A stretch of DNA of 64,000 nt from Candidatus Borrarchaeum weybense (GTDB lineage: Archaea; Asgardarchaeota; Sifarchaeia; Borrarchaeales; Borrarchaeaceae): assembly GCA_019057385.1 (NCBI GenBank), contig JAHQJS010000004.1, positions 1,169,068-1,233,067 of the forward strand, given 5' to 3'. Every line of letters begins with the position of its first letter. The stretch's first letter is position 1. The position numbers and the translations under genes were made by a program. Positions 7,628-49,208 of the stretch are shown piece after piece. The notes beneath the pieces are model-generated. The model made no database searches and was not told the DNA's origin. It was given only the letters and a program-made list of their open reading frames with translations.

Positions 7628-7674
7628 ATCGCCTTTCAGGGAAAGTCAATATTTCGACGAATAAAACTTTTTAT

Positions 7675-9040
7675 AGTACTCTCCGCAAGAAGACCCCCCA
7701 ATGTGTTGGGGGGATGAAGTGCGTGTTTTACGTGTTTCACTTTCACCGTAGTGTCCCCCAGCTTTAAATAGGTATTTGCGTATAGTAACTCTCGTGACAT
7801 GAATTTCAGGGGAACACAGGGATACGTATGATGACACGGACTTACAAATATCGCGTGTATCCAACCACACAACAGGCAACTACGTTAACGCAATGGCTTA
7901 CTACCTGTCGTCTGTTGTATAATAACGCTCTGGCAGCGCGAAAAGACGCTTGGCACACTCACCAACAATCAGTTACCTATTATGAACAAGCCACCCAACT
8001 ACAAGTTGCTAAACAGACCAACCCGTGTTTGAAGGTGGTGCATTCTCAGGTACTCCAAGATACACTCAGAAGACTGGATAAGACCTTCAGCAACTTTTTT
8101 AGGCGTCTTAAGAAGGGGGAAAAAGCCGGTTACCCACGATTTAAAGGAAAATACCGGTATGATTCCTTCACGTACCCGCAAAGTGGGTTCTCCCTCGAAA
8201 AGAACAACAAGAAACTCCGGCTCTCGAAAATTGGAAGTATCAACATTACACTCCACCGCCTTATCCCCTCTGAAGGAGTGATCAAGACCTGTACTATTAC
8301 ACGCGATGTTGACCACTGGTATGCCTGCTTTACAGTAGCACTGCCTGATCCCGAGCCTGAGTCTCAGCAGAGAGGAATAAAGAAGGCGATAGGGGTGGAT
8401 GTTGGGTTAAAGAGTTTACTTACGTTTAATAACGGAGATACCATAGCTAACCCCCGTTGGTTAAGACACTCGGAGAAGAAAGTAGCGAAAGAACAGAGAA
8501 GAAAAGATAGGAGGCAGAAAGGGTCACATAACCGTCACAAACAGAACACAAAGGTAGCACAGGTACACCAGAAGATACGTAACCAACGGAAGGACTTTCA
8601 TCACAAGCTTAGTCGAACACTGGTCGATGCTTATGACCTAATAGTGTATGAGAATCTCAAGATCACCAACATGGTGAAGAACCATCATGTAGCGAAGTCG
8701 ATTAGTGACGCCGGCTGGGGGCAACTTATGTGTTTTACGGAGTACAAAGCGGAGGAAGCTGGTACTCTAGTAGAATATGTGAGTGCCTATAATACCACAC
8801 AACTGTGTAGTAGGTGTGGGAAGCTGGTACCGAAAACACTAGCAACTCGCATCCACAGCTGTCCTTACTGTGTCCTTGATGTAGCACGAGATCATAACTC
8901 GGCCATCACCATTTTACACCGATCACGCTACTATGTAGCATCACGATCAGGGCAGGAACTGTCCGTCGAGCCTGTTTGACATGTCCCGTTGGGGAATGGA
9001 TGATTCAGGAAGCCACCCTACTTGTAGGGTGGTAGTTCAC
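7675..9040 (+). mobile_element. IS200/IS605-family (IS1341-type, tnpB-only) element
   Basis: TTTAT at 7670-7674, left-end hairpin CCCCCCAA-TGTG-TTGGGGGG, TATA box TTTAAATA 7763-7770, tnpB, right-end hairpin CCACCCTAC-TT-GTAGGGTGG ending GTAGTTCAC at 9040; higher GC than host; no tnpA. Confidence 0.9.
7828..8979 (+). CDS. tnpB: RNA-guided endonuclease TnpB (HTH_OrfB, RuvC, Zn ribbon)
   Basis: TYKYRVYPT N-terminus, GYPRFK, RuvC triad GVDVG / YENL / RDHNSA, CSRC...CPYC. Confidence 0.95.
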   Translation: MMTRTYKYRVYPTTQQATTLTQWLTTCRLLYNNALAARKDAWHTHQQSVTYYEQATQLQVAKQTNPCLKVVHSQVLQDTLRRLDKTFSNFFRRLKKGEKAGYPRFKGKYRYDSFTYPQSGFSLEKNNKKLRLSKIGSINITLHRLIPSEGVIKTCTITRDVDHWYACFTVALPDPEPESQQRGIKKAIGVDVGLKSLLTFNNGDTIANPRWLRHSEKKVAKEQRRKDRRQKGSHNRHKQNTKVAQVHQKIRNQRKDFHHKLSRTLVDAYDLIVYENLKITNMVKNHHVAKSISDAGWGQLMCFTEYKAEEAGTLVEYVSAYNTTQLCSRCGKLVPKTLATRIHSCPYCVLDVARDHNSAITILHRSRYYVASRSGQELSVEPV

Positions 9041-9056
9041 AGCCTTTCTCATCAGC
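8890..9056 (+). ncRNA. Predicted TnpB omega/reRNA overlapping the tnpB 3' end and right end; guide = 3' flank from 9041
   Basis: Structured GC-rich 3' region and right-end hairpin as in known TnpB loci; 5' boundary approximate. Confidence 0.6.
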
Positions 9057-9071
9057 ATTAAGAGGTCAATA

Positions 9072-9410
9072 TTAGACCAACGAATGGCGCATTTGATGCT
9101 GTTTTATTTCGTCATCAGGAATTCCGAGAATCCATCCAAGCCAAGCAGTTCTTAAATTCCTCTCAAGGTATGGTATTGACCCAGCTCGCATACCTTTTTC
9201 GAATTTAGCACGACTTTCTATTTCACGAAAATATTCTGCGAAGACTTCTTCTTCTTTGGGCTTTTCAAATAAAACCCATTGTAAGATCGAGAGACCTACG
9301 TTTCTAAGACTTTGACCTATGACGCCTTGAGCGGAAACTCCGATGGCATCTGATTCAGCTCGCTTTTTCTGTTCTTCATATTTTTCAAGCAATTCATCTT
9401 CGCTTCTCAT
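9072..9410 (-). CDS. Hypothetical small helical protein with internal duplication (paralog of 20683..21063)
   Basis: Shares EDELLEKYEEQ and TAWLGWILGIPD-EI-x-HQ with the 20683 ORF. Confidence 0.75.
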   Translation of the reverse strand: MRSEDELLEKYEEQKKRAESDAIGVSAQGVIGQSLRNVGLSILQWVLFEKPKEEEVFAEYFREIESRAKFEKGMRAGSIPYLERNLRTAWLGWILGIPDDEIKQHQMRHSLV

Positions 9411-9449
9411 ATGATCACATATCCTGTAAATTTGGTATTTAATCAGGTA

Positions 9450-9465
9450 TTTGTTCTATAGAAAT
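9450..9465. promoter_or_regulatory. Candidate operator with TTCTATAGAA palindrome upstream of paralog 1
   Basis: 16-bp TTTGTTCTATAGAAAT is the exact reverse complement of 20623-20638, upstream of paralog 2. Confidence 0.55.
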
Positions 9466-9560
9466 GCTTTGGTTCAAACAAATTGATGAAAAGTCATTAA
9501 AAGATTTTTTTCATTTAATTTGTTGTGCTTCCGTCTCAGCTTTTTAAAAGACGAGCAAAA

Positions 9561-10565
9561 TTAGGAGGATAATTTCTCTTTCAAGACCTTTTTTTCAGAT
9601 TCTATCATCGCAAGGATCTCAGAATCCATTTTAAATAGTCTGTTGTGAAAATTTTCATTCAAGGGCATTTTTTGGTATAACTCTTTTCTTTGAACTTCAA
9701 GGAGCATAGGTGAAAGTCCCATAAATTCAGCAACGCAATAAATATGGTTACCATTCTTCTTGGCAGTCTTATAGACGTCTTCAAGATGATCTTTCCACTT
9801 TGCATCACGAAGTAAGTGATGATCTACTATAATCATATCAATCTGGGAAGCTAGTTTCTTGAGGTTCGCTATCCCACTCATTAAATCCTCTTTCGGTACT
9901 TGTCGTAAATAAGTAGGCGGGCCACCAATCAAAAGTAAGTTAGGTTTTTCCTCTTCTATTAGTGATAAAGTATATTCAGACATTGGCCCTTGTACATCTG
10001 AAGCGTGGAGAATTTTTTCATCATTATATTCGATAGCTGTCATTATTACCCAGCCAAAGCGACTGCCTTCTGGTCCATGCCAGACAGGCTCAGAACAACG
10101 AATAGTTGTTTGCTTAAACATAAATGACTGACTATCTGCAGGACGAATTTCGCAATCTTCACGCTTATAGAGGTAATATGATCGTCTTTTTTGAGAGTAA
10201 TTGATGGAGCTTCTGTTTGATCGATCTTTGGCTAAGATTATTTTTCCCGAATATAATTGCGTAGCAATAGTTTCATTTGTCCATTGATAGACCTGTGAGA
10301 GTGAAGTAGTATAATGATCGAAATGAAAATGTGAAATCACTAATACATCGCATTTTTTAGCTCTTTCTTGTATGAGTTCTCTAGTTAACTTCGCTGCAGC
10401 TAGTTCTTTAATATGAGGGGGAAGTCTATCTCGTCGAGGTGCCAGCGCCACACTTGGATCTATCAAGATGGCTAAATCTGGTGTTTTAACATAAAAACAA
10501 AATGATCGTGTACCAAGAGATTCCGCTCCTATAGGCTCAATATGGAGTTTTTCCAGACCTAACAT
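9561..10565 (-). CDS. UPF0282-type metallo-beta-lactamase-fold hydrolase
   Basis: GAESLGTRS, SHFHFDH, HASDVQGP, DHHLLRD motifs. Confidence 0.85.
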   Translation of the reverse strand: MLGLEKLHIEPIGAESLGTRSFCFYVKTPDLAILIDPSVALAPRRDRLPPHIKELAAAKLTRELIQERAKKCDVLVISHFHFDHYTTSLSQVYQWTNETIATQLYSGKIILAKDRSNRSSINYSQKRRSYYLYKREDCEIRPADSQSFMFKQTTIRCSEPVWHGPEGSRFGWVIMTAIEYNDEKILHASDVQGPMSEYTLSLIEEEKPNLLLIGGPPTYLRQVPKEDLMSGIANLKKLASQIDMIIVDHHLLRDAKWKDHLEDVYKTAKKNGNHIYCVAEFMGLSPMLLEVQRKELYQKMPLNENFHNRLFKMDSEILAMIESEKKVLKEKLSS

Positions 10566-10645
10566 GTCTGTTGCCTTACTATATTATTTTGAATGCATGA
10601 TCGTCTCGATAGTTTTCTTAAATAAATATTGGTTTTTTGGATTCA

Positions 10646-11626
10646 TTATACTTCTTTATTCAATCGAATGGACTGTGTTGGGTATGGCATGTCTATACCA
10701 GCTTCGGTCAATGCATTTTTAATATTGTTCAGCATTCTGCTTTCTGTTTCAAAAACTCCGCCCGCTTTTGTTGTATCCACAAAAACCCTAGCTTCCATAT
10801 TAACTGCAAAGTCGCCTAGTTTTGTTACGACAATTTCTATCGGAGCAAAATAGCCTTGTCCTGATATTCCTGAGGTGACTGTAGCTGTATCCTTCTCTAG
10901 GACTTCTCGTATAATTTTTATCGCTTGCGATATGTCTGACTCATAAGCTATACCTATCTTGTGGAAAAGCCTTCTTAGCCGATGCGTTGAATAATTAATT
11001 ATCGCATCACTAGCTACCATTGAATTAGGCAAACTGATTAAAGTGTTATCAGGTGCGATAATAGTTGTAGATCGTAGATTAATCTCTATAACCTTCCCTA
11101 CTATATCATTCTTTTTCAACTGTATCCAGTCACCTATCTTGAATGCTTTATCAAAGATAATACTAACGCCTGCGAAAATATTAGCGACTGTTTGCTGGGC
11201 AGCAAGTCCTAATACGATTCCGGCAAAACCCGCACCGACTAATATCCCTTGAACGGCTGTAATAAGCCCAAAAACACCTAGAGTTAGTATAAAAGCGATG
11301 ATATAAATAAAATATCTAATTAGTCTTTTAAAGAGCATATTTAATCTTGTAGGAATATCAGCCACCCAGTGTATCACTTTGTCGTAAATGGTTAGGCTTA
11401 TTCTTACTGCATAAACTGCAACAAGCCAAATAATTACTATTTCTAACAACTGCGTTAGGAGTGGATAGGTAGTTGAAATCTGTACCCAATAAGAATAGAA
11501 ATTATATCTTAACATTAAAAAACCTAAAATTATTAGAAGAAAAATCACCGGAATTAAATAACTAGCTAGTATTCTTCTAGTTGTCGTTTGTATTTGAGAA
11601 TCATCAGTTTGCGAAATTCTTTTCAC
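10646..11626 (-). CDS. mscS: Small-conductance mechanosensitive channel (MscS family)
   Basis: GAGFAGIVLGLAAQQTVANIFAG, FKIGDWI, PNS, IDMPYP motifs. Confidence 0.9.
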   Translation of the reverse strand: MKRISQTDDSQIQTTTRRILASYLIPVIFLLIILGFLMLRYNFYSYWVQISTTYPLLTQLLEIVIIWLVAVYAVRISLTIYDKVIHWVADIPTRLNMLFKRLIRYFIYIIAFILTLGVFGLITAVQGILVGAGFAGIVLGLAAQQTVANIFAGVSIIFDKAFKIGDWIQLKKNDIVGKVIEINLRSTTIIAPDNTLISLPNSMVASDAIINYSTHRLRRLFHKIGIAYESDISQAIKIIREVLEKDTATVTSGISGQGYFAPIEIVVTKLGDFAVNMEARVFVDTTKAGGVFETESRMLNNIKNALTEAGIDMPYPTQSIRLNKEV

Positions 11627-11924
11627 TTCCTTTCAGAAAAATTAATGGCATAATACTATTAAGTTTAACCAAGGCGGCTTATAGTCTATTAAATATTTAT
11701 GTAAACCGAAATTCGTTGAGTTGTCACTTGTGTTTCTACTTAGGGAAAACGCAACTCAACTGTGATTCTATGAAGCTTAATAACAAGAGAAGGGTTTTTT
11801 AATCATAATAAATATTGCTTGTGTGTATGATAAAATTTTAATAGTCTCTAAGAGTGCTTTAAACACACTCCGCAAAACTAGTAAATAATAAATAAAAATA
11901 CGAGCAATCCGATGGTATTTTCAA

Positions 11925-13100
11925 ATGAAATTTCTATTAGGTGTATGCGGAATAGGACTGGGTCATGCAGGAAGATCAGTAAAACTTGCTGAAATGTTGA
12001 CTTCTCAAGGGCATGATGTTTTTTTCACATCCTTTGGTGTCGCCTCCGATTTTATCAAATTAAACGGGTACAAAGTTTACAGAATCCCGCCATATGAGTG
12101 GTATTCTGCGGGGACAGAACCCAATTGGTCAATGTCCGCGATTAACGGTGCGCCGATCATCCACCGCATTGTAAGGGGCTACAAAAAAATTCTAAAAATC
12201 ATAAAGAAAGAAGCCCATCTCGATTACATTATCTCAGATACTGATTTTCCTACGTTGCTGACACTTGCAAGACACAATTTTGAAGGGTGTATTCTCACAA
12301 ATACATTACGAATTGGCGTACTTGGGAAGCAGTTGCTCGAATACGGTGTGACAGGTCGAATACTTCGACCTAATTTGAAATTCCTTTTCAATAGGAAGAT
12401 AGATGCTCTCTTCCTCTATTTATACAAGCGCACTAACAAGGTTTATTGTTTCGATTTCCCCCCGCCGTACACACTAGCCAGACATAATATACTTCCTGAT
12501 GAGTCATTTGATGGTGAATTGCGGTACTGCGGCCTGATTAAAGGAAAAGACCCCCAAGAACTACCTTCTAAAGAAGAAATCATGGAAAAATTGGACTTAA
12601 ATCCCGATTTGCCGACAATATACATCGGCATAAGCGGACCGAATAAATACCAACTCATTAACTTTTTCGCAAACCATTATGATGGTTGCAAAGATAAGAA
12701 CATAATTATTACCACAGGAACGCCCTCTTCATCATTACCGACTTATAGAAATCAGGAGTTCAGAGTTTTTCATTGGTATCCTGTACGAGAGGAACTTCTG
12801 AAAGTTGCAGACGTTATCGTGGCCCGTGCTGGTTTAAACACGATTTCAGAAATTTTAACTTTCGGAAAGAAAAGTCTATTAATTCCAGAATTACAACCAG
12901 AGCAGATGGAAAATGCACATTCTCTAGAAAGCCTAGGTCTCTGTGTTACAATTCATCAAAAGGCTCTAAATGAAGAAATCTTTAATATTCAATTAGCAAG
13001 AGTATTAGAAAATAATCAAATGACAAAACGGTTAAAAGAATATCAATCACTTTGTAGACGATATGATGCACTTTCAATGATAACAAACGATTTTAATTAA
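11925..13100 (+). CDS. GT-B glycosyltransferase, family 28 / MurG-like
   Basis: GIGLGHAGR N-terminal motif, ARAGLNTISE, QPEQMENA. Confidence 0.85.
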   Translation: MKFLLGVCGIGLGHAGRSVKLAEMLTSQGHDVFFTSFGVASDFIKLNGYKVYRIPPYEWYSAGTEPNWSMSAINGAPIIHRIVRGYKKILKIIKKEAHLDYIISDTDFPTLLTLARHNFEGCILTNTLRIGVLGKQLLEYGVTGRILRPNLKFLFNRKIDALFLYLYKRTNKVYCFDFPPPYTLARHNILPDESFDGELRYCGLIKGKDPQELPSKEEIMEKLDLNPDLPTIYIGISGPNKYQLINFFANHYDGCKDKNIIITTGTPSSSLPTYRNQEFRVFHWYPVREELLKVADVIVARAGLNTISEILTFGKKSLLIPELQPEQMENAHSLESLGLCVTIHQKALNEEIFNIQLARVLENNQMTKRLKEYQSLCRRYDALSMITNDFN

Positions 13101-13155
13101 GCTTATTTTATATGAATAAAAAAAGAAGAACTCGATCTCAGTTCTAAAAATAACC

Positions 13156-13524
13156 CTAAAGGTCTAAAGCAGACCTTACCTTACTAGCAAACAGTTTCCC
13201 CTTTACTCCATGAGACTCAACCTTTATATTGCCATCACTTTCAGCTTGTTTTGCGAGATCCTTATCACCTGAATTAATTACCTTTTTAATAATATCACTT
13301 TTTCCTGTAATGGTGACGTGAGGGCCATCATGAAGTCCTTCGTCGATCGTGATGCTTCCATCAGTCTGGATCACAGCAGATGCTACATCTTCAGGATCTT
13401 GACCCACTACATTAATCTTAGCTGCACGTACGATCTTTAAGAACACTTTAGATTTTTTACTTTCCTTTAAATAGTTTTCAGCTTCTTTTAATCTCTTACT
13501 TACACATTCAAAAATTGTACTCAT
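13156..13524 (-). CDS. Hypothetical protein, possibly SCP2 (sterol carrier)-like fold
   Basis: GSITIDEG..GPHVTITG pattern resembles SCP2 domains; weak. Confidence 0.45.
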   Translation of the reverse strand: MSTIFECVSKRLKEAENYLKESKKSKVFLKIVRAAKINVVGQDPEDVASAVIQTDGSITIDEGLHDGPHVTITGKSDIIKKVINSGDKDLAKQAESDGNIKVESHGVKGKLFASKVRSALDL

Positions 13525-13691
13525 TATTGGGATGCCTCCGATAGTGCTAACTCAATTTCGGGATATTATTATATATAGTTTATAGTTTTTACGATTGAAA
13601 GTTGATTGGAATTCAACTTCTGAATAAAAGTTGAATGTATTAATAGCAATTTTCAAAAATCTTAAACAACAAATAGATGAAGTGAGAGATT

Positions 13692-14177
13692 ATGACTACA
13701 AAAAAGGAGCCTCATCAGGTAATTGAACTTACTGAAGAGTATGCAGAAGCGATCGAACAACTCTTCAAAGATGTTTGGCCACACGCAACAGAATATCCGC
13801 ATGACTGGCGAGAAAAAAGAATGCTATCCAAAGAAGAAATTATTGATGAGATGAGACAAGGATATCATTACTTTGGTATCAAATTTGAAGGCAAATTAGC
13901 TGGACTTTACAAAGCCCTAATTACCCCTGAGGGATGCTTCGGAGCACATCAGTCGATAAACCCGAAATATTGGAGGGGCGGCATGGGTGGAGCTATGTAC
14001 ACGCAATTTATAGAATTTGCAAAGAAGATGGGGTGTAAACGCAATTATTGCAACATTTTAATCGGTCAAACTGCTAGTGAAAAACTGGTAAAGAAATTTG
14101 GATTCAAAGAAGTTGGTGAACCATATGAACAGGCAAAAGGAATGCTTGTGCAGATGTATGAAAGAGAGGTAGAATAA
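13692..14177 (+). CDS. GNAT-family N-acetyltransferase
   Basis: SINPKYWRGGMGG acetyl-CoA motif A and KFGFKEVG motif B. Confidence 0.8.
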   Translation: MTTKKEPHQVIELTEEYAEAIEQLFKDVWPHATEYPHDWREKRMLSKEEIIDEMRQGYHYFGIKFEGKLAGLYKALITPEGCFGAHQSINPKYWRGGMGGAMYTQFIEFAKKMGCKRNYCNILIGQTASEKLVKKFGFKEVGEPYEQAKGMLVQMYEREVE

Positions 14178-14180
14178 CGT

Positions 14181-15257
14181 TTGAACTATGCAACTTTAAA
14201 AACTGAATTACTTTGCCTAGGAGCAAAAGCTAAAACTAAACGACATTTAAGAAAAACTGGAGCTGGACCCGCAGGTGGATCTTATTTTGTTCTTCCAAAT
14301 AGGAGTCTAGTCCAAATACCTGTTGTAGGTCACTTCGTCCAAAATTCCCCTTTTTCAATTATTGAAGACTCAGATGTGTTATATCTCTTTAAAAACAGTG
14401 AAAAGGTATGTGAAATACAAGGAGTGCCTACACCGCAGTTCTATGGAATTAATACATCAGATGGCATTCCCATGTGGAAAATTGCATTAATTCACGGTGT
14501 AGACTGTCTTGCAACAACCGTAGACCAGACTTGTATACACTGGCGCCATAATTTACAATGCGATTTCTGCGGCATTGAATTATCACTCAAACATCACAGA
14601 ACGATTACGAGAAAATCACCTGAAAAATTGATAGAAGTAATACAAGCTGCACGTGCAGAAAATAGGGCTAATCATATCACGTTAACTATTGGTACACAAG
14701 CTGGAGAAGATCGAGGTGCAAATATTCTTTCAAAAACGACCAGAAGGATAAAAGAGGAAATTGATATCCCTATTCACGCACAAGCAGAACCCGCAGATGA
14801 AATATATCTAGGGAAACTAAAAGATTCAGGAGTAGATACGCTCGGAATTCATATTGAGACCACTGACCCCGATATTTTCAAAAAAGTGTGCCCTGGTAAA
14901 GCAATGCTCGACTTTGAATATTATGAGAAGATTTGGGGGCATGCAGTAGACATTTTCGGTAAGAATCAAGTAAGTTCATTTGTAATAGTAGGTTTAGGAG
15001 AATCAGATGAAAGCATTCTAAATGGCGCTAAGTGGATGGCATCAATTGGGGTAATTCCTTTTGTAGTTCCACTTCGACCAATTCCTGAAACGCCTTTAGA
15101 AAATGCAATACCTCCTTCGCCAGAACGAATGATTTATTTATATGAAGAAGTGGGAAAAATCTTAAAGGAAAATAATCTAAATCCTAATAAAAACAAAGCT
15201 GGGTGTGTTCGCTGTAAAGGATGCTCATCCGTTGATGAGTTTGTAATCGGTTATTAA
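14181..15257 (+). CDS. Radical SAM protein, MSMEG_0568 family
   Basis: GAGPAG, LIHGVDCLATTV, atypical CxxxxxxxxCxxC (CIHWRHNLQCDFC), PFVVPLRP, C-terminal KAGCVRCKGCS. Confidence 0.8.
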   Translation: MNYATLKTELLCLGAKAKTKRHLRKTGAGPAGGSYFVLPNRSLVQIPVVGHFVQNSPFSIIEDSDVLYLFKNSEKVCEIQGVPTPQFYGINTSDGIPMWKIALIHGVDCLATTVDQTCIHWRHNLQCDFCGIELSLKHHRTITRKSPEKLIEVIQAARAENRANHITLTIGTQAGEDRGANILSKTTRRIKEEIDIPIHAQAEPADEIYLGKLKDSGVDTLGIHIETTDPDIFKKVCPGKAMLDFEYYEKIWGHAVDIFGKNQVSSFVIVGLGESDESILNGAKWMASIGVIPFVVPLRPIPETPLENAIPPSPERMIYLYEEVGKILKENNLNPNKNKAGCVRCKGCSSVDEFVIGY

Positions 15258-15468
15258 TAAAACCTTTCTCCCAGTTCTTTTGTGGAATTGATTTACTTTT
15301 TTTAAATCTTCATTAACTACATTCAAGATTAGAATGTAGAAAAAGCACTCTAATAATTTGCTCAAATAATTGAATATATAATGCAAAAAATCGAAAATAA
15401 CTGGACAAACAACTTTTGATAGAGGCTTGAATGCATGTAAGAGACGTTATAAAAAATTAGGTGATTAA

Positions 15469-17346: not shown

Positions 17347-17347
17347 A

Positions 17348-18814: not shown

Positions 18815-18816
18815 TA

Positions 18817-19449
18817 ATGGTAGCCGGTTATAATATTATGCTGTCGGGTGTTGGTGGTCAAGGACTTATGTTACTATCATCAATCATTGGAAATGCCTGT
18901 AACAAACTAGGACTGAAAGTAATAACTGGAGAACAGCATGGCCTCTCTCAAAGATCTGGCTCAATCTATGTCCATCTTAGAATCGGTGAAAAGGTACATT
19001 CGCCATTAATTCCTTATGGTTTCGCAGACATGATTATTTCTATGGAAGCTACTGAGGTTCTGCGTTATATTGAATTTCTCAAAGATGATGGAATCATCAT
19101 TATGAACAGACGTATTATGCATCCTTCTCTAGTAACTGCTGATATTGCAAAGCACAGAGATGAAAATCGTAGATATATCACCTTAGAACAGATATTTGCT
19201 CAGTTAAAACAAGTAACTAGCAATATTATTATATTAGACGCAACAAAACTTGCTGAACTTGCTGGGAATCCAAGAACCGAAAACACGGTATTGAGTGGTG
19301 CAGCCAGTGCTTTACAAGAGTTCCCCATCGATAAAGATGTTCTGAAGGAGGCTATCAAGGATTTGGTGCCATCTAAGACAATTGAAGAAAATATTAGAGC
19401 GTTTGACTTAGGCTATGAAGAGGCAAAGAAAATCCTTACGAGTCTATGA
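18817..19449 (+). CDS. iorB: Indolepyruvate:ferredoxin oxidoreductase beta subunit
   Basis: SGVGGQG, HGLSQRSGS, SPLIP, ENIRAFDLG; ATG 18817 lies just outside the element. Confidence 0.93.
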   Translation: MVAGYNIMLSGVGGQGLMLLSSIIGNACNKLGLKVITGEQHGLSQRSGSIYVHLRIGEKVHSPLIPYGFADMIISMEATEVLRYIEFLKDDGIIIMNRRIMHPSLVTADIAKHRDENRRYITLEQIFAQLKQVTSNIIILDATKLAELAGNPRTENTVLSGAASALQEFPIDKDVLKEAIKDLVPSKTIEENIRAFDLGYEEAKKILTSL

Positions 19450-20523: not shown

Positions 20524-20622
20524 TATTCTTAATATGCTTTAAGAAAATATTCTTATGTCAAATAGTAGATGACCAGTAATGCCAAATTTAGTCTGTCTGC
20601 TAGTTTTTGTTCACATCGATAA

Positions 20623-20658: not shown

Positions 20659-20682
20659 GATTTTAAATCATTTATTCCTTGC

Positions 20683-32431: not shown

Positions 32432-32444
32432 TTCCTTTCCCTCC

Positions 32445-40427: not shown

Positions 40428-40560
40428 AATTAGGATGAAGTATTAAATTTATAATAAACATTGAATTGCGTGAAAGTGTCCTTTCATGCAATTATATCCA
40501 CATTAGTTTTTTTAACTGTTCAAACATCACTAAAATAGCGAGTCGTATGAGGCTTCTGAA

Positions 40561-41052
40561 GTGAACACATTAGTCATAGCAACATGCGTTAAAGAGAAAC
40601 GAAAGGGAAGTCATAAAGCTAAAGATCTCTATATTTCGGATCTATTCAAAAAGATGAGAAAATATGTTGAAACGTATAATTATGACTGGAGAATTATTTC
40701 TGCAAAACATGGATTGATTAATCCAGAAAAAGTGATTGATTCCTATGAGGATGAATCACTAGATCAATTTAAATTACTTCAAGGAAAACAAACTGAAAAC
40801 TTAAGGGCAAAAAAAGAAACATTGAGAAATATAATTGACGAACAGTTGAGACCAGTTCTAACAAACTATGAGCGAATAATTTTAATGTGCGGAAAGCAGT
40901 ACAGAGACGTTATATTACCATTACTTGAGGAAAAAGAGGTTATAAACTATTTTAAGGGAACAAAAGGAATAGGTGAAATTAAGCAAAAACTCAGTAGTGA
41001 TATCGCCAAGAAAAAACAGCTCCCTCTCGATGAATATCTCACCGCCGCATAA
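40561..41052 (+). CDS. DUF6884-like protein (YaaA/DUF5591-related fold, seen near TGT/DpdA genes)
   Basis: C..K....AKDLY.S.LFKK, IISAKHGLI, GKQY, GIGE motifs. Confidence 0.7.
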   Translation: MNTLVIATCVKEKRKGSHKAKDLYISDLFKKMRKYVETYNYDWRIISAKHGLINPEKVIDSYEDESLDQFKLLQGKQTENLRAKKETLRNIIDEQLRPVLTNYERIILMCGKQYRDVILPLLEEKEVINYFKGTKGIGEIKQKLSSDIAKKKQLPLDEYLTAA

Positions 41053-41125
41053 GTTAAAAAGTTAAGAGGATAACAGTACACCATATTTTTCGTTTTTAAA
41101 AAATCTATGCGGAGTGGTGTTGTAA

Positions 41126-42343
41126 ATGAAATTCTATTTACCATTCTGGTGGCCTGATGGGATCAATACGCATTTTGACCCCTTCTTAGAAACCGTTCCG
41201 CATAAAGAAAAAGTTCGAATTTGGAATATCTATAATCCTCCACCCTTAGATGGTATCCTTGTTTCGAGAGTAAATGTAGAATCAAAACCTCCCGAAAATG
41301 ATGACATTCATACAGCTTTAGACTTCAAAGGATCCATAATGGGCGATTGTGGGGCGTTTTCCTATATCGACGAAGCAGAACCGCCCTACGATCCTATAGA
41401 CACTCTAGAATTTTATGAAAAATACGGATTTGATATTGGGGTGACCGTTGATCACCTCATTGTTCCTAAATACGATAATGAGAAAGAATATCGACAAGAA
41501 CTGACCATCAAAAACGCAAAAAAGATGTTTGATGTGTGGAAAAACAAAGAAACTAAATTAAAACTACTTGGTGTTGTCCAGGGATGGAATGCTAACTCTT
41601 ATGCAACTGCAGCTCTTGAACTCGCTGAATATGGTTTTGATTACATTGCACTAGGAGGTTTGGTACGCGAACCGACAGAAAACATAAAGAAAATCCTAGA
41701 GATGGTTCATGCCATACTTCAAACAAACTCTCAAGAAAAAGGCGTACAAACAAAAATTCATTTGTTTGGCATTGCACGAGAGTCACTTTTCGCTACGATG
41801 AAACATACAGGAATACACTCTTTCGATAGTGCAGGAAGTCTTCGAAATGCTTGGTTGAGCGCCAAAAAAAATTATTATTTGGATAATGTGCCCTATTGTG
41901 CCATTCGCATCCCCAGGCCAAAAGATCTACGAGGTAAAAAAAAGAAATTTGTAGAAGAGCACGAAATTTCGAAAGACCTTTTGGTTAAATTGGAAAAAAA
42001 AGCGTTGGCAAACATCCGAGCGTTTCAAAAGCAAGAAATTACTCTTGATGAAGTACTGACAGCATTAAAAGAATATACCTCTGTTTTCACCCCTCCTAAG
42101 CAAACAGATCAAATCATCAACGAGTATCAACGGACACTCAATGCTAGACCATGGGAGTTGTGTGACTGCTCACTTTGTAAAAAGATAGGGATTGACATAA
42201 TTTTCTTCAGAATGCACGAAAGGAATATGCGACGCGGGTTTCATAATGTCTACGACTTTTATAATCACTTCAAAAAGTGGGAACAAAACTATTTACCATC
42301 TAAGAAAAACGAAAAGGAAAACCAACAATTGAAGTTAGTTTAG
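41126..42343 (+). CDS. dpdA: DpdA-type guanine transglycosylase (7-deazaguanine insertion into DNA)
   Basis: DGILVS, MGDCGAFSY..E..PPY, VTVDHLI, GVVQGW, IALGGLV, IHLFG, SFDS, RPWELCDCSLC...RRGFHN. Confidence 0.82.
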   Translation: MKFYLPFWWPDGINTHFDPFLETVPHKEKVRIWNIYNPPPLDGILVSRVNVESKPPENDDIHTALDFKGSIMGDCGAFSYIDEAEPPYDPIDTLEFYEKYGFDIGVTVDHLIVPKYDNEKEYRQELTIKNAKKMFDVWKNKETKLKLLGVVQGWNANSYATAALELAEYGFDYIALGGLVREPTENIKKILEMVHAILQTNSQEKGVQTKIHLFGIARESLFATMKHTGIHSFDSAGSLRNAWLSAKKNYYLDNVPYCAIRIPRPKDLRGKKKKFVEEHEISKDLLVKLEKKALANIRAFQKQEITLDEVLTALKEYTSVFTPPKQTDQIINEYQRTLNARPWELCDCSLCKKIGIDIIFFRMHERNMRRGFHNVYDFYNHFKKWEQNYLPSKKNEKENQQLKLV

Positions 42344-42370
42344 ACTATTTGTAACAAGCACTAAATTCAA

Positions 42371-43579
42371 TCATATCGCTAAAGAGTCACTCATTAAGTG
42401 CGGAATATTCCCACAGGGACATTGTTTTGTATCCTTTAGTTCTATCCACTTCTTTGTATCACTAGCGTAACGAGGTTTTAGTTTAAAAATCAATACTAAT
42501 TCTTGCCCGGTTGATAAAAGTTGTTTTCCTTCTATCTTAACTACTACCTTGTTCTTTTTTACATCAACTGTCCATTCGAATGGCTCAGCAATCTCGCTAT
42601 ATGATTTGGTTAGATTAATCTCGCCTATTTTTCGCTTATGATCCATTAGAATTTCGCATGATACTGCGCCATTGAATTTGGAAAATTCATAACTAAGTTT
42701 AAGCGCGTCTAAACGCCTAAGTTTTAGCCAATAGTGAAAACATGCTGAAAACTTGTTTTTATTCAGTTTACAAACGTACATTCTCTTTTTATCTTGAATA
42801 TTGATCGTATATGACTCACCTAGTCGTAAGTTGTTATAGTAACTCTTAATAATTTCCGGTGAGACGGTAGCATTTGCGATCGTTAAATCCTTCAATTTAT
42901 GGGTGAAGACATTTGGCTCGTAGGGAAGAGACTCATCAAATTCATTTGTAATCTCAACTTCATAAGGGTCATTAGAAGAAAACAAAGTAACATAAGTGAT
43001 GAAAGGAGCCCTATTTGATAATTTTAAATATTTTCTTCGCTCAAAATAGTCCATTAACCCATCACGTCGAATTTTCCATGTAATATCCTTTGTAAGTAGC
43101 CAATGTATTTGCGTATGATTTGTAAAGAATTCAAAGAGGTCGGAATAACGAGATATCTCATTTTCAGATGCTACTTTACTCTGAAAATCGACAGGAATAT
43201 CCTTTGTAAAATATGAGGAGGGTAGGCTTCGTCCAAAGTACAAAATTCGTTTCTTTATCGTCCAAAAATCAGCAAGAGCCTTTTTTCTCTTCTTCTTTTC
43301 CTTATTGATAAGTTCTAATTGTTCCAGTGCATTTAATGCCCTTCTTACATTAGCTAATGGTTCTTGTAGCTGATCTGCCAAATCATGTGTAAAGAACCCT
43401 TTTTTGTTTTCGAGAAGTCGAGCATATGCTTTGAGGGCAGTATCATTTTTCCAGCCCATTACCTTTCCGAATGCTTCAATTTTATCTTTATTATTCATCA
43501 TATCCTCTGAAAGGATAAATTCGCTTGCAGTAGATTTCGATTCTGAGTTTTTGAGTTTCTTTTTAGGCAATAGACTCAC
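42371..43579 (-). CDS. Hypothetical protein: N-terminal winged HTH (TFE/TrmB-like) plus unknown beta-rich domain
   Basis: DLADQLQEPLANVRRALNALEQLELI...FW pattern. Confidence 0.6.
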   Translation of the reverse strand: MSLLPKKKLKNSESKSTASEFILSEDMMNNKDKIEAFGKVMGWKNDTALKAYARLLENKKGFFTHDLADQLQEPLANVRRALNALEQLELINKEKKKRKKALADFWTIKKRILYFGRSLPSSYFTKDIPVDFQSKVASENEISRYSDLFEFFTNHTQIHWLLTKDITWKIRRDGLMDYFERRKYLKLSNRAPFITYVTLFSSNDPYEVEITNEFDESLPYEPNVFTHKLKDLTIANATVSPEIIKSYYNNLRLGESYTINIQDKKRMYVCKLNKNKFSACFHYWLKLRRLDALKLSYEFSKFNGAVSCEILMDHKRKIGEINLTKSYSEIAEPFEWTVDVKKNKVVVKIEGKQLLSTGQELVLIFKLKPRYASDTKKWIELKDTKQCPCGNIPHLMSDSLAI

Positions 43580-43935
43580 AGTTCAGTTTTTTTACAATTA
43601 TCTCATTCGTCCTATAAAATTTTTTGTAACAGCTTTTTTATTTCATCAAAACTTCAAACCTTAATCAATACACACAAGAAATAAGCATCCAATATCAAAA
43701 TAAAACACTTAAACAAGTTTTATCCTGGTTATTTTTGCTCCTCAGCGGATTTTTAGTCTTTATATCGATTTAACATTCAAGTACAACTGTGAACCTGTTA
43801 CAATTTCTGTCATTGGAAATCCCTAAATTCGCTGATTGATAAAAAGAGTATAGAGCATTAAATTCCTGTTTTGAGTACATTTCCGACAAAAACTAGTATA
43901 TTTGAAAATAAGAGGCATATCTAAGGAGGAATTCC

Positions 43936-44493
43936 ATGGAAGAAATGGATGCAAAGCACATGAACGAACAAGATAGTAAGATGAAGATCTTCGCGGATAG
44001 TAAGGAAGCTGCGTTAACCGCGATAATGGCAGCGTTATATGCTGTTCTTACATGGGTTGTAGCCCCGATTGCTTATGGTCCAATACAATTTCGAGTGAGT
44101 GAAGGATTAAAGGGATCTGTAATTAAAAAGAAGGTTCTTATTATTAGCTTTATTATTGGGAATGCGTTATCCAATATATTTAGCCCCCAGGCAGGTATTT
44201 GGGAATTTCTCTGGATGCCCTTTTGGAACCTCATCGGTGGTGGATCATGTTATCTCATTGCCAATAAACTTACTTACAACTTTAATTACAAAGATGGAGA
44301 ATACAACCTATTCTATTTTGTTGGTGCTTTCGTGTATGCGTTCTGCATAGCATTCGCTGTAGCATTCATGCTCGCAATTCTCTTTGCCCTTCCCTTTTGG
44401 ATCCTACTTCCAGTACTTCTTCTACCAGAAGCCATACTGATCGTCGGTCTTACACCTGTAATGACTCGTATTATGAATGAAATAGAGTGGTAA
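43936..44493 (+). CDS. queT: QueT-family queuosine-precursor transporter (ECF S component)
   Basis: AALYAVLT...PIAYGPIQFRVSE signature, multiple TM helices. Confidence 0.85.
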   Translation: MEEMDAKHMNEQDSKMKIFADSKEAALTAIMAALYAVLTWVVAPIAYGPIQFRVSEGLKGSVIKKKVLIISFIIGNALSNIFSPQAGIWEFLWMPFWNLIGGGSCYLIANKLTYNFNYKDGEYNLFYFVGAFVYAFCIAFAVAFMLAILFALPFWILLPVLLLPEAILIVGLTPVMTRIMNEIEW

Positions 44494-44543
44494 GACCATA
44501 ACCACTTTTTCCTTACTGTTTTTCTATACTTATGGGATTAGGT

Positions 44544-44792
44544 TTACTTGAAAAGCCAATCTTCTCTTTTCTTTTTCATATGAGTCTCCAAGACAGTCTT
44601 TGTATGAATGTCTCCTACTGTTTCAAAAACCATGTGTGACTGAAGGGGTTTTTTTCTAGCTGGTTCAAATCCCTGAACTGGGCACAGTTCTATTGGTGTT
44701 TTAGCTAGAACTTTATGTTCAAAACAATCGCCTTTGACTTCATCTACTGGTTTGTAGTATTTACAATCCCTACAAATGAACTCTTCACGCAT
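44544..44792 (-). CDS. Small four-Cys protein (possible Fe-S/Zn; BssC/HpdC-like Cys spacing)
   Basis: CRDC...KGDC...CP..GF; its 5' UTR is split by the adjacent element. Confidence 0.6.
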   Translation of the reverse strand: MREEFICRDCKYYKPVDEVKGDCFEHKVLAKTPIELCPVQGFEPARKKPLQSHMVFETVGDIHTKTVLETHMKKKREDWLFK

Positions 44793-44794
44793 TT

Positions 44795-45123
44795 CCCTTA
44801 GGGAAGCGCCTGCCCTTTAGGGTGGGGAAGAATTGAGGGTGTTTTTCACTTTTATTAGGGCCTCTCCACTTTTAAATACGTGTTCTGAGATAGAGGTACG
44901 TGGTCTAAAGGCACACCTCTCATAGAAGTGGAAATGGTTAATGACCTCAAGGATGAGGAGCAGTAAACTGGTATAGCCCGACTCTATATGAGGATTACTG
45001 GGCTGGGCTGCGGTAAACACGCCCATGTGTTAGCGTGCGATGAGGTTGAAACTCTTTTGCAAAGAAGAGGACTGAGACCAAGCACAGCTAAAAGCCTCAC
45101 TGCTTTAGCGTGAGGTAGTTTAC
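44795..45123 (+). mobile_element. Protein-less IS200/IS605-type element carrying a promoter and a structured RNA
   Basis: Left hairpin CCTGCCC-TTTA-GGGTGGG, TTTAAATA 44871-44878, right hairpin CCTCAC..GTGAGG ending GTAGTTTAC; flanked by ACGCATTTCCCTT direct repeat. Confidence 0.85.
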
Positions 45124-45322
45124 GCATTTCCCTTCCTCTCCTTTTATCAAATGAAATCGGAATCTTTCACAACGTCATTATATCGATTTATTCATGCAAG
45201 ATTAGTTGTTATTGTATCACTATAATATATTTTCATGATATAAAATATTTTGTATGAGTTTTTTGACGAAAACTATTAATCCTTAAAACAATTAAGATAA
45301 TGTTCTAAAATGGTCTTAGGAG

Positions 45323-46369
45323 GTGAATCTATTAGTAGGATCTTACAGGCTGACTAAAGCAGTAAGGGTTCATGGTTGATCCTGTAAGTTGCCCCAAGCA
45401 GACCTAGAAAAGTTACTAGAGAGCATAGAAGTCTATCTACCCGAAGGTTCAGTTAAAGAGAAAATGTTAGCAGGAGCAGGAGATGACGCCGCAGTAATAC
45501 AGATTAGAGATGATCTAGCACTTATTGAAACTGTAGATTTTTTCACACCAAATATTGACGAGCCAATGATTCAAGGAGAAATCTCTGCATGTAATACAAC
45601 TAATGACATTTATGCGATGGGCGCTGTAGACATTCTTAGTGTACTAGTTGTTATGGGTGCACCAACAAATATGCCTTTTGAAATCTCTCGAGATCTTTTA
45701 AAGGGATTTAAAAATTTCTGTGAACGTCTAGGAACACACATTGTCGGCGGACATACTATAATAAATCCATGGCCTTTCATTGGTGGTTGCGCACTAGGTT
45801 TGGCGCACCCAAATAGCGTTGTCTATAATCGCGGTGCAAAAGTTGGAGACATTCTTCTCTTAACAAAACCTTTAGGAACGCAACCTGCGATGGCAGCATA
45901 TCGTTTACTCAAAGAAGAACAACAATTAATTGATTTATCTGAATATTTACCCACTAAAGTAATTGATCGTGCAATACAAAAAGCAATTGAGATAATGACA
46001 ACAACAAACAGGCCAATAGCAAAAATTATGCAGGAAATCAAGGTTAATGCCGCAACGGATGTAACCGGCTTTGGATTGACTGGGCATGCACGTGAAGTAG
46101 CAACACAAAGCAAGGTAAATATTGTGATTGATACTATGCCGATCATAAAAGGAACTAATATCCTTTCTGATCAACTAGGCTATTCATTAATGGAGGGTAC
46201 ATCTGCAGAGACTGCTGGAGGAATGTTACTCTCGTTATCACGTGATAATGTTGATCTATTCAAAGAAAAACTAATAGAAAGAGGAATAAAATCCTTTGAA
46301 ATAGGGCATGTTAAGGAGGGCAGCGGACAGGTGAATATTGTGCCTGATATAAGAATTATTGAAGTTTAG
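45323..46369 (+). CDS. selD: Selenophosphate synthetase, selenocysteine-containing (UGA 45377-45379)
   Basis: In-frame N-terminus YRLTKAVRVHG-TGA-SCKLP upstream of the called start; GDDAAV, TVDFFTP, NDIYAMG, GGHT, LTKPLGT, TDVTGFGL, ETAGG. Confidence 0.95.
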
Positions 46370-46443
46370 ACGGCGCGTAATGAAAAAGACAGAAACCGCA
46401 AGGAGGGTCTTTAGAGCTTTCCACCAATGCAGGTGGCACCGTC
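46369..46443 (+). promoter_or_regulatory. 3'-UTR SECIS-like element with AUGA/GA kink-turn core
   Basis: Outer stem GACGGCGC/GCACCGTC; ATGAA 46380-84, stem AAAGAC/GTCTTT, apical AAA plus CC-GCAA-GG, AGAG 46413-16. Confidence 0.75.
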
Positions 46444-46463
46444 AATATCCTCATATCTAAATT

Positions 46464-47372
46464 CTATTTCTCTCCATAGTCAACATTGCCAAATGCTTTG
46501 TTGTATTCATTGCTGAGTAACTCGTCGACCACATGCGTATACTTCTGCGTCGTAGATAGATTTGAATGCCCCAGCTGTTGTTGAATAACCCTTACATCCA
46601 TACCTCTGGATAAAGCAGTCGTAGCAAAGAAATGTCGTAGTTTATGACAACTGATAGCGGGATTTATACCTGCCAGATCTCGATATTTTGCAACTATATG
46701 TTGAATGGTACGAATGGCAATTCTTTTCCCATTCCTACTTATAAATAATGCATCATTTTCTTCGATCTTAGGTCGGATTTTTAAGTAATCGTTGATTAGA
46801 TCAAGCGCTGTAGTGCTAATTTTAACGTATCTGTGTTTTCCTCCCTTTGAAACAAGCCTTAGCGTTTCCTTTTCAAAATTGATATCTTTTAAACTCAAGT
46901 TATGGATGCCTTTTACACGAGCTCCAGTATAGATAAAAACAGCTAAAATCGCTAAATCACGAGTCTTATAATTTGAATTTCCTTCTTTGACAGTCTCAAT
47001 AAGTTTATGTATTTCTTTTTCCGTGGGAAAAATTGGCAATGTATGATCTAGTTTTGGTGTTTTGATTTCACCCATTGGACTTGTCTTAAGGTATTTCTCT
47101 CTTAACAAAATGTCATAGAATGTTCTGAGAGTCGAAACCTTTCGAGCTAAAGTGGTTTTTTTGTATCCTTTATCGCGTTTTAAATGAACTAAGAAGGCTC
47201 TAATATCTCTTGTTGTGGCATTTATAAGGGGTTTTTTAGTGAACTTGGAGAACAACGTCAGATCGTGAAGATACTGATTAAGGGAGGAACTTGCAAGCCC
47301 TTCTTCAACTTCTTTGATCACACGGAATTGATCGATTAATTCTTCATCAGATAAAACTTTTGTTTCCGACAT
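46464..47372 (-). CDS. xerA: Xer-type tyrosine recombinase
   Basis: SAM-like N-domain; catalytic R (GARV), K (SKGGK), HKLRH, LGH, Y (TQKYT). Confidence 0.85.
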   Translation of the reverse strand: MSETKVLSDEELIDQFRVIKEVEEGLASSSLNQYLHDLTLFSKFTKKPLINATTRDIRAFLVHLKRDKGYKKTTLARKVSTLRTFYDILLREKYLKTSPMGEIKTPKLDHTLPIFPTEKEIHKLIETVKEGNSNYKTRDLAILAVFIYTGARVKGIHNLSLKDINFEKETLRLVSKGGKHRYVKISTTALDLINDYLKIRPKIEENDALFISRNGKRIAIRTIQHIVAKYRDLAGINPAISCHKLRHFFATTALSRGMDVRVIQQQLGHSNLSTTQKYTHVVDELLSNEYNKAFGNVDYGEK

Positions 47373-47545
47373 ATTCGAAACTTCCGCAAGAACGGTATTT
47401 AGTTATTCTAATTTTGATTCATAGATTTAAAGCTTTATATTTTTAAGATTTCTGAGATTTTTATCCGCTTTTGTAGAGGATAAACATTAATATCGGGATG
47501 TTTTATTTCAAATGATCTAAAAGGTTTAGTAACATCTTGATAAGA

Positions 47546-47875
47546 TCATTTTAGAATCCTTTTCCATTTTGGTAAGTCTCTTTGTCTGTATTTTTCAATT
47601 ACCTTTATTAAGACCGCTTCGAGATCAATATTTCTCTTATTTGCCAAAGATATCAGTACAAATAGTAGATCACCAATTTCTAATTCTAATTCCGCTTCAA
47701 AATTGATGTGCGAATCTTCTTTTGCTATAGGACGAAATCCTTTTAGGCGCTGCAAAACGTGTGCAATTTCACCTAATTCTTCTATCATTCGAGCTAAGAT
47801 AATGGGATCTTCCCAGTATCCTCCTATTTCATTGATAAATTCATCAACGATTTTTTGAAGTTCTCGTAATTCCAA
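47546..47875 (-). CDS. MazG-like nucleotide pyrophosphohydrolase (YpjD-like)
   Basis: GYW, EELGEIA, EIGDLLF. Confidence 0.88.
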   Translation of the reverse strand: MELRELQKIVDEFINEIGGYWEDPIILARMIEELGEIAHVLQRLKGFRPIAKEDSHINFEAELELEIGDLLFVLISLANKRNIDLEAVLIKVIEKYRQRDLPKWKRILK

Positions 47876-48091
47876 TGGTCTTCCCTCATCAGTGATATAT
47901 TGAAAAAATGTAATTTTTTAATCTTATTTTGTAAGAATTTATCTAGTAACAAAACTCCTTTTCTGAGTTCCTCTATCAGATCTCAAGGGATGGATATGAA
48001 CGCAATCAGATCTCTTACTGAAGTAATTCTCACAAAATATAAAAATAATGATTGTGGTGCTTTTACTAAGTAACGAAGCGAAGTGATATCC

Positions 48092-48580
48092 ATGAGGATT
48101 GAGTTACCAGGTAAAAACTGCGAAAACTGCGGTAAATGCGTTATTCTATGCCCAGATAATCTTTATGTCGTTGACCTGACCACAGAAAAAGCGGTAATAG
48201 CTGATGATACCGTTTTTAATGAATTAGAAGATCGTATAAGTGGCGCCTTACTTACATTAATTAAGGAGCAAATACATAGTGATGGAAAAGTTACCGATGA
48301 TGAAAAAGCGCTCCTAGGTGTTATCACACGTAGTTTCTCAACGTTTAGTAATATGAGAAAAGTCGCGGAGCCAATTCTATTTTCAGCAAAAAAATATCTC
48401 TTCAAAAAAATCTGGGAAGAAGCAATAAAGGACGATGTCATTAGCGAAGATGAGCAAGCAATACTTGACATCATGGTTGATAAATTAAAAATCGCCCCAA
48501 ATGAAAAAGAACAATTCATTTCGGAAGTTGAAGCCGAAGCGGCAGCTATTAAGAAGTTAAAGCAAAAATTGGCAAAGTAG
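48092..48580 (+). CDS. 4Fe-4S motif fused to TerB-like repeated D[GD]x[VI][TS]xDE helices
   Basis: CENCGKCVILCP; DGKVTDDEKALL and DDVISEDEQAIL. Confidence 0.65.
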   Translation: MRIELPGKNCENCGKCVILCPDNLYVVDLTTEKAVIADDTVFNELEDRISGALLTLIKEQIHSDGKVTDDEKALLGVITRSFSTFSNMRKVAEPILFSAKKYLFKKIWEEAIKDDVISEDEQAILDIMVDKLKIAPNEKEQFISEVEAEAAAIKKLKQKLAK

Positions 48581-48764
48581 GTTTTCACCATAATTATTTA
48601 TAACAAGCCTTCCTTTTTGATTTTAAAACTTACCTTTTTACTGAGATTACTGTTCTAGTGGATTTTTTTAGTTTTTACGCGTCTTTTAATTTTATAGGGG
48701 TCATGTTTGTTCACTTTCTTCACAGATCCAAAATTCTCGATAGGAATATCTAAATCAGTTAGGT

Positions 48765-49095
48765 GTGAACTACCACCTAACGAGTGAGGTGGCTTCTGTC
48801 CTCCTAGACTGTTCTGCTTAGCCAACACGGTTGGACACATGCAGCCTAGTCATCGACAGTTCGGGCTGGTCAACGGCAGCCCCCGTCCCTCAAGGGACAC
48901 TTGAGGTCCGACAGTACCCTCATCGGTACTGTGTCTTGTGTACGCCCTTCACGCTAAGCCAGACACCTTGGATACCGCATATTTTTATTGTAATTAACTG
49001 CTATTTAAGTTGAAGGAGACCTGTGTGAAAGTGAAACAAGTAAAAGACGCAATTCATCCCCCCAACAAGTTAGGAGGTCTTCTTGCGGTAGATCT
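48765..49095 (-). mobile_element. Protein-less IS200/IS605-type element (same left end as the 7675 element) carrying a promoter and a structured RNA
   Basis: Minus strand: TTTAT-AGATCTACCGCAAGAAGACC...GGGGGGATGAA..TGTTTCACTTTCAC closely matches 7670-7746; CTTAAATA box; right end GAAGCCACC...GGTGGTAGTTCAC. Confidence 0.9.
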
Positions 49096-49208
49096 ATAAA
49101 TTGTAGAAAGACCTTTCGTCAACGGTGATGCCTCCTTTTATGAAGGAAGATTTATCCACAGTTAGGTATAAAATATAGAAAGACCTCACATAAGTAGTGG
49201 TGAAAAAT

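Follow-up and report, generated by a model that had tools for sequence, protein, structure and literature searches.

Motif-anchored duplications of right-flank DNA at the left ends of some IS200/IS605-type elements in Candidatus Borrarchaeum weybense

Introduction

Insertion sequences of the IS200/IS605 family serve as the textbook case of elements that transpose without duplicating their target, and a short direct repeat on both sides of such an element raises the question of whether the repeat arose with the element or was already there. A 64,000-nucleotide (nt) stretch of the genome of Candidatus Borrarchaeum weybense, here called the window (G000:C4:1169068-1233067, G000 being this genome of 4.18 Mb, 37% GC and 8 contigs), holds three IS200/IS605-type elements: a tnpB element, E1, and two derivatives without an open reading frame (ORF), E2 and E3. 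A first-pass annotation of the window reported a repeat of the right flank on the left side of all three elements and explained it by one-ended transposition. The three repeats are present; that of E2 is a true duplication, that of E3 is part of a larger repeat, and E1 carries no duplication.

Across the genome, 8/86 elements (~9%) repeat the first 7-11 nt of their right flank directly after the target motif on the left side, and ~91% of copies are canonical, without duplication. The phenomenon is real, recurrent, one-sided and apparently undescribed, and its mechanism is what we infer below. What the compared genomes show directly is that the duplications exist, lie on one side and follow the motif, that empty alleles hold a single copy, and that the extra DNA is of local origin.

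The duplication at E2

E2 (44800-45123, plus strand) is a 324-bp ORF-less IS200/IS605 derivative with left and right hairpins and the ends GTAGTTTAC. It is preceded by TTCAC (44784-44788, plus strand), the target motif (NTCAC) of its family, with (N)TCAC found at this position in 21 copies from five genomes. Between motif and element lies the 11-bp sequence GCATTTCCCTT (44789-44799), which recurs with 11/11 identity directly after the right end (45124-45134), both copies on the plus strand. Four empty alleles, on G004:C120, on G003:C13 and on two metagenome contigs of run X7, hold one copy each, and they identify the right copy as the native target sequence. The alleles of G004 and G003 read a single GCATTTCCC(G/T)T followed by CCTCTCC, and the X7 contigs, which come from another study, skip E2 with joints at 44797>45202 and 44799>45162. 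Because the empty alleles hold one copy, the 11 bp are truly duplicated. The IS200/IS605 family is defined as making no target duplication (PMC7290912; 10.1101/2023.03.14.532601), and E2 departs from that definition, with the 11 bp present twice in G000 and once in all four empty alleles.

The position of the left copy is informative when E2 is set against its family, whose consensus from the 21 copies reads TCAC|TGATCCCCCTC AAGGAAGCC. The first 11 nt after the motif match the right flank of E2 at 11/11 positions and the consensus linker at 6/11, with the spacing usual in the family. The linker has been overwritten in register and the hairpin is intact. The left end is accordingly not truncated, contrary to what had first been proposed. 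The 13-bp repeat of the first-pass annotation is present, but the duplication within it measures 11 bp, the additional AC being common to the target motif TCAC and the right-end motif TTAC. The microhomology that it placed in the left-end stem likewise exists as a short in-register CCCT at the left junction, but the replaced part is the linker and not the stem.

The left copy also contains the start codon of an 82-aa minus-strand ORF (44544-44792) that has no Pfam match and whose orthologues in G004 and G003 begin at the same ATG. This copy supplies the ATG together with seven upstream bases, and without it the insertion would sever the start codon from the ORF.

On the other side of E2, ORFs 45389-46369 and 46464-47372 (window 45400-47500) are 97-100% identical to G004:C120 vs 83-93% on either side, which suggests recent exchange between the G000 and G004 species. 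A co-conversion tract running from the right end of E2 was considered and set aside, as the 97-100% tract starts ~270 nt from the element.

A canonical insertion at E1

E1 (7675-9040, plus strand) is a TnpB-only, IS1341-like element with homology to ~15 full-length copies over 7670-9040. Its ORF at 7828-8979 matches PF01385, PF07282 and PF12323 (OrfB_IS605, Cas12f1-like TNB and HTH_OrfB). It follows the target motif, or transposon-adjacent motif (TAM), TTTAT (7670-7674, plus strand), which ends the left arm of an exact empty site in the sister species G004 (G004:C23 2786|2787), where window position 7674 is joined to 9041. The 7-mer GCCTTTC stands on the plus strand at 7631-7637 and again at 9042-9048, parted from the right end at 9040 by an A at 9041. 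The empty allele already holds both copies and the 32-nt spacer, which is the outcome that the first-pass annotation had itself named as refuting its claim, and E1 is no duplication case; in controls, a 7-mer match of this kind occurs at chance level. E1 is a textbook insertion with no target-site duplication. The left GCCTTTC lies in a small inverted repeat (CCTTTC AGG GAAAG, 7631-7648) just past the stop codon of ORF 5774-7627, possibly a terminator-like hairpin.

A duplicate empty site at E3

E3 (48765-49095, minus strand) is a 331-bp ORF-less derivative, complete at both ends when aligned with four other copies that have unrelated flanks, and its own junctions are canonical. As first reported, the 9-mer CAGTTAGGT occurs at 48756-48764, where it opens the right flank as its initial 9 nt (ACCTAACTG on the minus strand, that of the element), and again at 49159-49167, where it adjoins the target motif (ATAAA on the plus strand, 49168-49172). 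It is part of a larger, 28-nt repeat. TTTAT and 14 nt of left flank beside E3 (49096-49114, minus strand) are repeated at 49168-49186 with 17/19 identity (local alignment p=0.002 against shuffles), and the proximal copy is parted from the distal 9-mer by a 44-nt spacer (49115-49158) with no second copy found in the genome and weak similarity to the neighboring flanks. Along the element strand, 14 nt of left flank come first, then TTTAT and the 9-mer, the 44-nt spacer, a second run of the 14 nt and TTTAT, E3 itself, the 9-mer once more, and the remaining right flank. The distal block (49159-49186, minus strand) therefore reproduces the insertion site in contiguous, unoccupied form, 72 nt away from the occupied site and identical to the split site at 26/28 positions.

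The distal copy restores contiguity upstream of the TATA-like box of a zinc-ribbon protein gene (49209-49844, plus strand). This box contains the E3 target motif, and both the gene and the GTATAAAATAT box are common to G004. No empty allele of E3 was found: G004 has another insert, G001-G003 give no match, and the contigs of four runs give no joint across E3. In contigs from two further studies, the left flank runs on into E3 (48508-48838), and E3 runs on through the spacer to the distal copy (49007-49214), with 13-43 differences from the window each. The arrangement is present in related populations and is therefore old and shared. In G004, the intergenic content between the genes flanking E3 is wholly different: an unrelated ~2.3 kb with at least one long ORF (G004:C120:58254-60587) stands in place of window 48580-49166. 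A right end reaching further into the flank, suggested by a 41-nt flank similarity to the copy near C7:366k, was rejected because the similarity is not real once aligned.

Recurrence across the genome

The genome contains ~86 right ends of one IS200/IS605 super-group, built as a box such as GCAGGAAG, a hairpin and the tail GGTAGTTCAC or GGTAGTTTAC. Four types of left end are distinguished by their target motif (A, TTTAT; B, TTAC; the E2 family, TCAC; C, TTTAA). In all of them a 9-12-nt linker separates the motif from a box (GCAAGAAG or CGGGAAG), beyond which lies a hairpin, and TTTAT is conserved ahead of the left end in all type-A copies. As read from the sequence, the ends of E1, E2 and E3 have subterminal imperfect hairpins on both sides, kept across copies, and no terminal inverted repeats. 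The three insert directly 3' of a conserved tetra- or pentanucleotide, with exact empty sites for E1 and E2. The Y1 (HUH) transposase TnpA was not found within E1-E3, which are therefore non-autonomous; a single tnpA exists in G000 (C7:194221-194586). An Rfam scan of the window returned no family at the gathering score.

Two features of these ends stand apart from the duplications. Type B elements insert after TTAC and end in TCAC, and the reverse holds for the E2 family, with TCAC as target and TTAC as right-end motif (for E2, window 44784-44788 and 45119-45123), a one-base swap that would keep the guide of each off its own right junction. At G000:C8:29170-29560 and on G004:C19, an E2-family copy runs directly into a second left-end-like sequence, of a different kind and with a hairpin of its own; such a head-to-tail order would be expected if the retained target motif were hit twice.

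Recurrence of the duplication was assessed over all 86 right ends by seeking the right-flank prefix up to 2.6 kb upstream, with the upstream regions of other elements as controls. A prefix of at least 9 nt recurs upstream in 10 elements vs 1.7 expected, and one of at least 10 nt in 5 vs 0.4. When only copies that immediately follow a target motif are counted, exact matches of 8 nt or more are found for 6/86 elements vs 0.07 expected, and a 10-mer with at most one mismatch for 7/86 vs 0.16. Near the element's own left end, a prefix of at least 9 nt occurs in 5/32 elements vs 1% in controls. The mirror test, in which the left-flank suffix was sought after the element's own right end, gave no excess. 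Chance origin is thereby rejected genome-wide, and is kept for E1 only. Two further matches were left uncounted, at C5+24292 (an 11-mer inside the conserved left-end box, with a flank that looks like a left-end remnant) and at C4+891757 (a 10-mer without left-end context). In a separate comparison of 55 left-end linkers with 86 right flanks, made to look for fossil guides, no linker matched another copy's flank over at least 7 nt, the only such match being that of E2 with its own.

Two claims of the first-pass annotation are borne out throughout, namely that the right junction is precise and the left the variable one, and that the duplicated bases are the right-flank bases sitting directly after the target motif. 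The repeats are far above chance genome-wide, but they affect ~9% of the elements and not all.

Two architectures

Besides E2 (11 nt) and E3 (9 nt), the G000 cases are a (C7+195885, 10 nt, the autonomous tnpA+tnpB element), b (C4-399651, 9 nt), c (C5-56707, 9 nt, a 47-nt mini-element), f (C7-358146, 10 nt), i (C4+1154437, 7 nt) and j (C7-548893, 10 nt with one mismatch). Two more were found in G004: G004:C113 (9 nt, 1/20 aligned E2-family copies from other genomes) and G004:C44 (8 nt, 1/~19 sampled G004 elements). The lengths are narrow (7, 9, 9, 9, 10, 10 and 11 nt in G000; 8 and 9 nt in G004), and all copies begin at +1 after the motif. Case a, whose site is occupied in G004 too, and case c, whose locus is rearranged in relatives, yielded no empty allele.

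In the first class (a, b, c, E2, i and G004:C113), the copy lies between motif and box and replaces the consensus linker (CTTAATCGG in type C) at nearly the same length, with 1-4 terminal bases of the copy agreeing with the consensus as a terminal microhomology. In the second class (E3, f and G004:C44), a copy of the unoccupied site stands upstream of the occupied one across a spacer of 17-80 nt, and comprises 12-19 nt of left flank including the motif followed by 8-10 nt of right flank. The extra DNA of this class opens with local left flank (E3, 17/19; case f, 12/12 and 19/23; G004:C44, 14/14), an indication that the template was the occupied allele at that very locus rather than a distant donor.

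Case j stands apart, with ~30-44 nt of right flank duplicated, the left-end hairpin lost and two empty alleles. Its left copy consists of the genome's own diverged N-terminal codons (...DTHIH.DGMSEDEL), with mostly synonymous differences, and its right copy is ~98% identical to G004. A 750-nt tract at 96-99% identity lies beside the element and is not used as evidence here.

Three side observations concern these loci. The only tnpA+tnpB element of G000 (C7:194107-195885, locus L044) occupies the same site in G004:C91 with the same 10-nt left-end linker, ATAGACTTGG, and is an old, vertically inherited insertion. G000 also has many mini-elements of 43-47 nt (among them C5 minus 56660-56707, C5+7263, C4+91745 and C6+592035), in which the target motif and the linker and box of a left end are combined with a single hybrid hairpin and the tail GGTAGTTCAC of a right end, an architecture suggestive of recombination between the two hairpins that deleted the intervening DNA. 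At G000:C7 plus 355400-357208 (locus L048/L060), identity to G004 steps exactly at a miniature inverted-repeat transposable element, from 96-99% over 750 nt on the right-end side to 69-77% towards the gene, and recombination may have had its boundary at this element.

The two architectures bear on the one-ended transposition of the first-pass annotation, in which TnpA would transfer the right end precisely and the free 3' end at the motif would extend over the flank before a microhomology-guided switch to either the left end or donor flank. Displacement synthesis from the motif 3'-OH would copy precisely the bases that are duplicated, and the precise right junctions, variable left junctions, start at +1 and left-junction microhomology agree with it. 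The second class tells against it, however, in that the extra DNA of E3, f and G004:C44 is local left flank, with no copy elsewhere, and not foreign donor sequence. Neither of the spacers 7638-7669 and 49101-49158 recurs in the genome (best matches of 14-16 nt, at chance level), on which ground foreign donor flank is rejected as the source of the extra DNA. For E3, the donor-flank capture first proposed finds no match upstream of any other copy, and the extra DNA instead opens with local left-flank sequence. Nor does a free template switch predict the in-register replacement of the first class, and ~91% of elements, including E1, are canonical. No such side reaction of TnpA was found in the literature searched. 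The model is partly supported, in that it keeps its precise right end, variable left end, +1 start and microhomology and loses E1, truncation and donor flank, and as a whole one-ended transposition is judged unlikely.

The genes beside the left ends bring in a second alternative, that no nuclease was involved and that rare illegitimate or unequal recombination between empty and occupied alleles (in polyploid cells or through DNA exchange), or short tandem repeats already in place, was kept by selection for a rebuilt start codon or core promoter of the neighboring gene. The copies of E2 and j carry coding or start sequence, in E2 the ATG with its seven upstream bases and in j a conserved N-terminus with synonymous differences, and the model accounts well for both. 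It can also point to the contiguity restored by the distal copy of E3, to E1 as proof that pre-existing repeats occur, to the strongly asymmetric flank identity to G004 at case j, which suggests a recombination boundary, and to the divergent ORF starts that lie near the left end (within about 170 nt) in 7/8 cases, although against a 50% expectation for gene orientation this last count is weak. It leaves unexplained the exact post-motif start of every left copy, and copies of the second class, free of any length constraint, still stop at 8-10 nt; the high-identity tract near E2 does not begin at the element. Nuclease-free recombination with selection is thus regarded as improbable for the set of cases.

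A third possibility is that the left copy is itself functional, the motif and a 9-11-nt guide match forming a partial self-target that TnpB would bind without cutting, so regulating excision or nearby transcription. Catalytically dead TnpB relatives are known as repressors. Left copies are exact where the adjacent duplicated sequence has diverged, and the 10-mer of case a is kept at the left end in two species, as such a role would have it, but promoter or coding constraint can also explain exact cores. The binding is purely hypothetical, only ~9% of elements have the copy, and its origin is left unexplained, which together make a regulatory self-target very unlikely.

Proposed repair of a vacated site

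The explanation to which we lean, with a confidence somewhat short of even, is that the duplications are joints left when a vacated or never-occupied chromosome copy was repaired off an element-carrying copy of the same locus, probably after a cut by TnpB. The argument rests on the two DNA ends that the sequences record. A left DNA end with the motif and the first right-flank bases can only derive from an unoccupied allele, and local left flank beside an element only from an occupied one, which makes repair of a broken unoccupied allele from an occupied allele the simplest account. The break itself, its maker and the repair route are what we infer.

A break would fall a few bases 3' of the motif, leaving on the left a DNA end that still carries the motif and the initial 7-11 nt of the right flank. 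Ordinary homologous recombination would restore the right side, which on this proposal is why the right junction looks precise. In the first class, exemplified by E2, the retained tail, anchored by pairing of the left flank, would be extended in register and overwrite the left-end linker; in-register copies with 1-4 nt of microhomology are expected if left-flank pairing anchors the register. In the second class, exemplified by E3, the retained bases would be joined further upstream to over-copied left flank with filler, leaving a copy of the empty site. Selection would enrich survivors in which the retained bases rebuild the start codon (E2) or promoter-proximal bases (E3) of the left gene, and probably acted as a filter on survivors, in keeping with the divergent ORF starts near the left end in 7/8 cases and with the coding or start sequence carried by the copies of E2 and j.

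The candidate nuclease is TnpB with the element's own guide RNA, which would cut the vacated site at a distance measured from the motif. TnpB homing at vacated sites is established, with a right-end guide RNA directing the cut and triggering repair (10.1101/2023.03.14.532601). For the TnpB of ISDra2, the cut in the non-target strand lies 15 bp from the motif (PMC8612924), and a left end keeping up to 15 nt would be expected from such a cut. More tentatively still, and with a likelihood put at well under even, the motif-adjacent duplications may be natural footprints of RNA-guided TnpB cleavage at vacated sites, in which case the retained 8-11 nt would mark the left break end in vivo and the motif-plus-seed matches may serve as self-targets that cannot be cleaved.

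Several points weigh against repair of a vacated site. The break and TnpB activity in this organism are hypothetical, and the sole measured TnpB cut, on the non-target strand, lies at +15 and not at +8 to +11, which would call for trimming or another geometry. Case j keeps ~30-44 diverged nt and a truncated left end, outside the narrow length range. In the second class, exact identity of the repeat is confined to a core of 22-28 nt and the remaining spacer sequence has diverged or is unrelated, a pattern not predicted by a simple recent copy. E3 is old, and so is case a, each being common to other populations or species. With a single tnpA in the genome, the excision that creates vacated sites may be rare now. 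The upper length limit of the first class could merely mirror the 9-12-nt linker.

Implications

A recurrent, one-sided, motif-anchored duplication would give a sequence-only signature of past homing or repair that can be sought in any genome, and would hint at the in vivo cut position of archaeal TnpBs. To our knowledge, TnpB homing has been shown only in laboratory bacteria, and the TnpB-footprint reading, if true, would be genomic evidence for homing in Asgard archaea. The duplications also show how insertions into gene starts and promoters can become harmless. For annotation, a short direct repeat beside an IS200/IS605 element may be pre-existing, as at E1, or a true duplication, as at E2, and the empty allele alone decides.

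Comparison with known systems

Left-side duplications for IS200/IS605 elements or TnpB homing were not found in the limited set of literature searched, which describes excision and homing as scarless. The elements otherwise match the peel-and-paste IS200/IS605 family (IS608 and ISDra2, TnpB-only elements of the IS1341 type and ORF-less derivatives) in their subterminal hairpins, in the absence of inverted repeats, in insertion 3' of a fixed 4-5-nt motif (here TTTAT, TTTAA, TTAC or TCAC), in a tnpB with OrfB_IS605 and TNB domains, and in the lack of duplication at E1 and the other canonical copies. They differ in the minority of copies that carry right-flank bases at the left end.

In TnpB homing with omega-RNA (Meers et al. 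preprint, 10.1101/2023.03.14.532601; Karvelis et al., PMC8612924), the substrate is the motif and the right flank, and the left copies described here are the first bases of that substrate. The cut is measured from the motif, and repair proceeds off the occupied sister copy (10.1101/2023.03.14.532601; PMC8612924). Published homing is scarless, however, whereas repair here would be imperfect on the left side, and the implied end at +8 to +11 is nearer to the motif than the measured +15.

The target-site duplications of DDE transposons are likewise short direct repeats of target DNA that flank an element, with one copy in the empty allele, as at E2. Here they are found in a minority of copies, their length is not fixed, no DDE enzyme is involved, and the left copy overwrites element sequence or sits 17-80 nt away. 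Homology-facilitated illegitimate recombination and microhomology-mediated end joining share with the present cases homology on one side, 1-4-nt microhomology on the other and possible filler DNA, but the illegitimate junction here lies at a near-constant distance from a transposon target motif.

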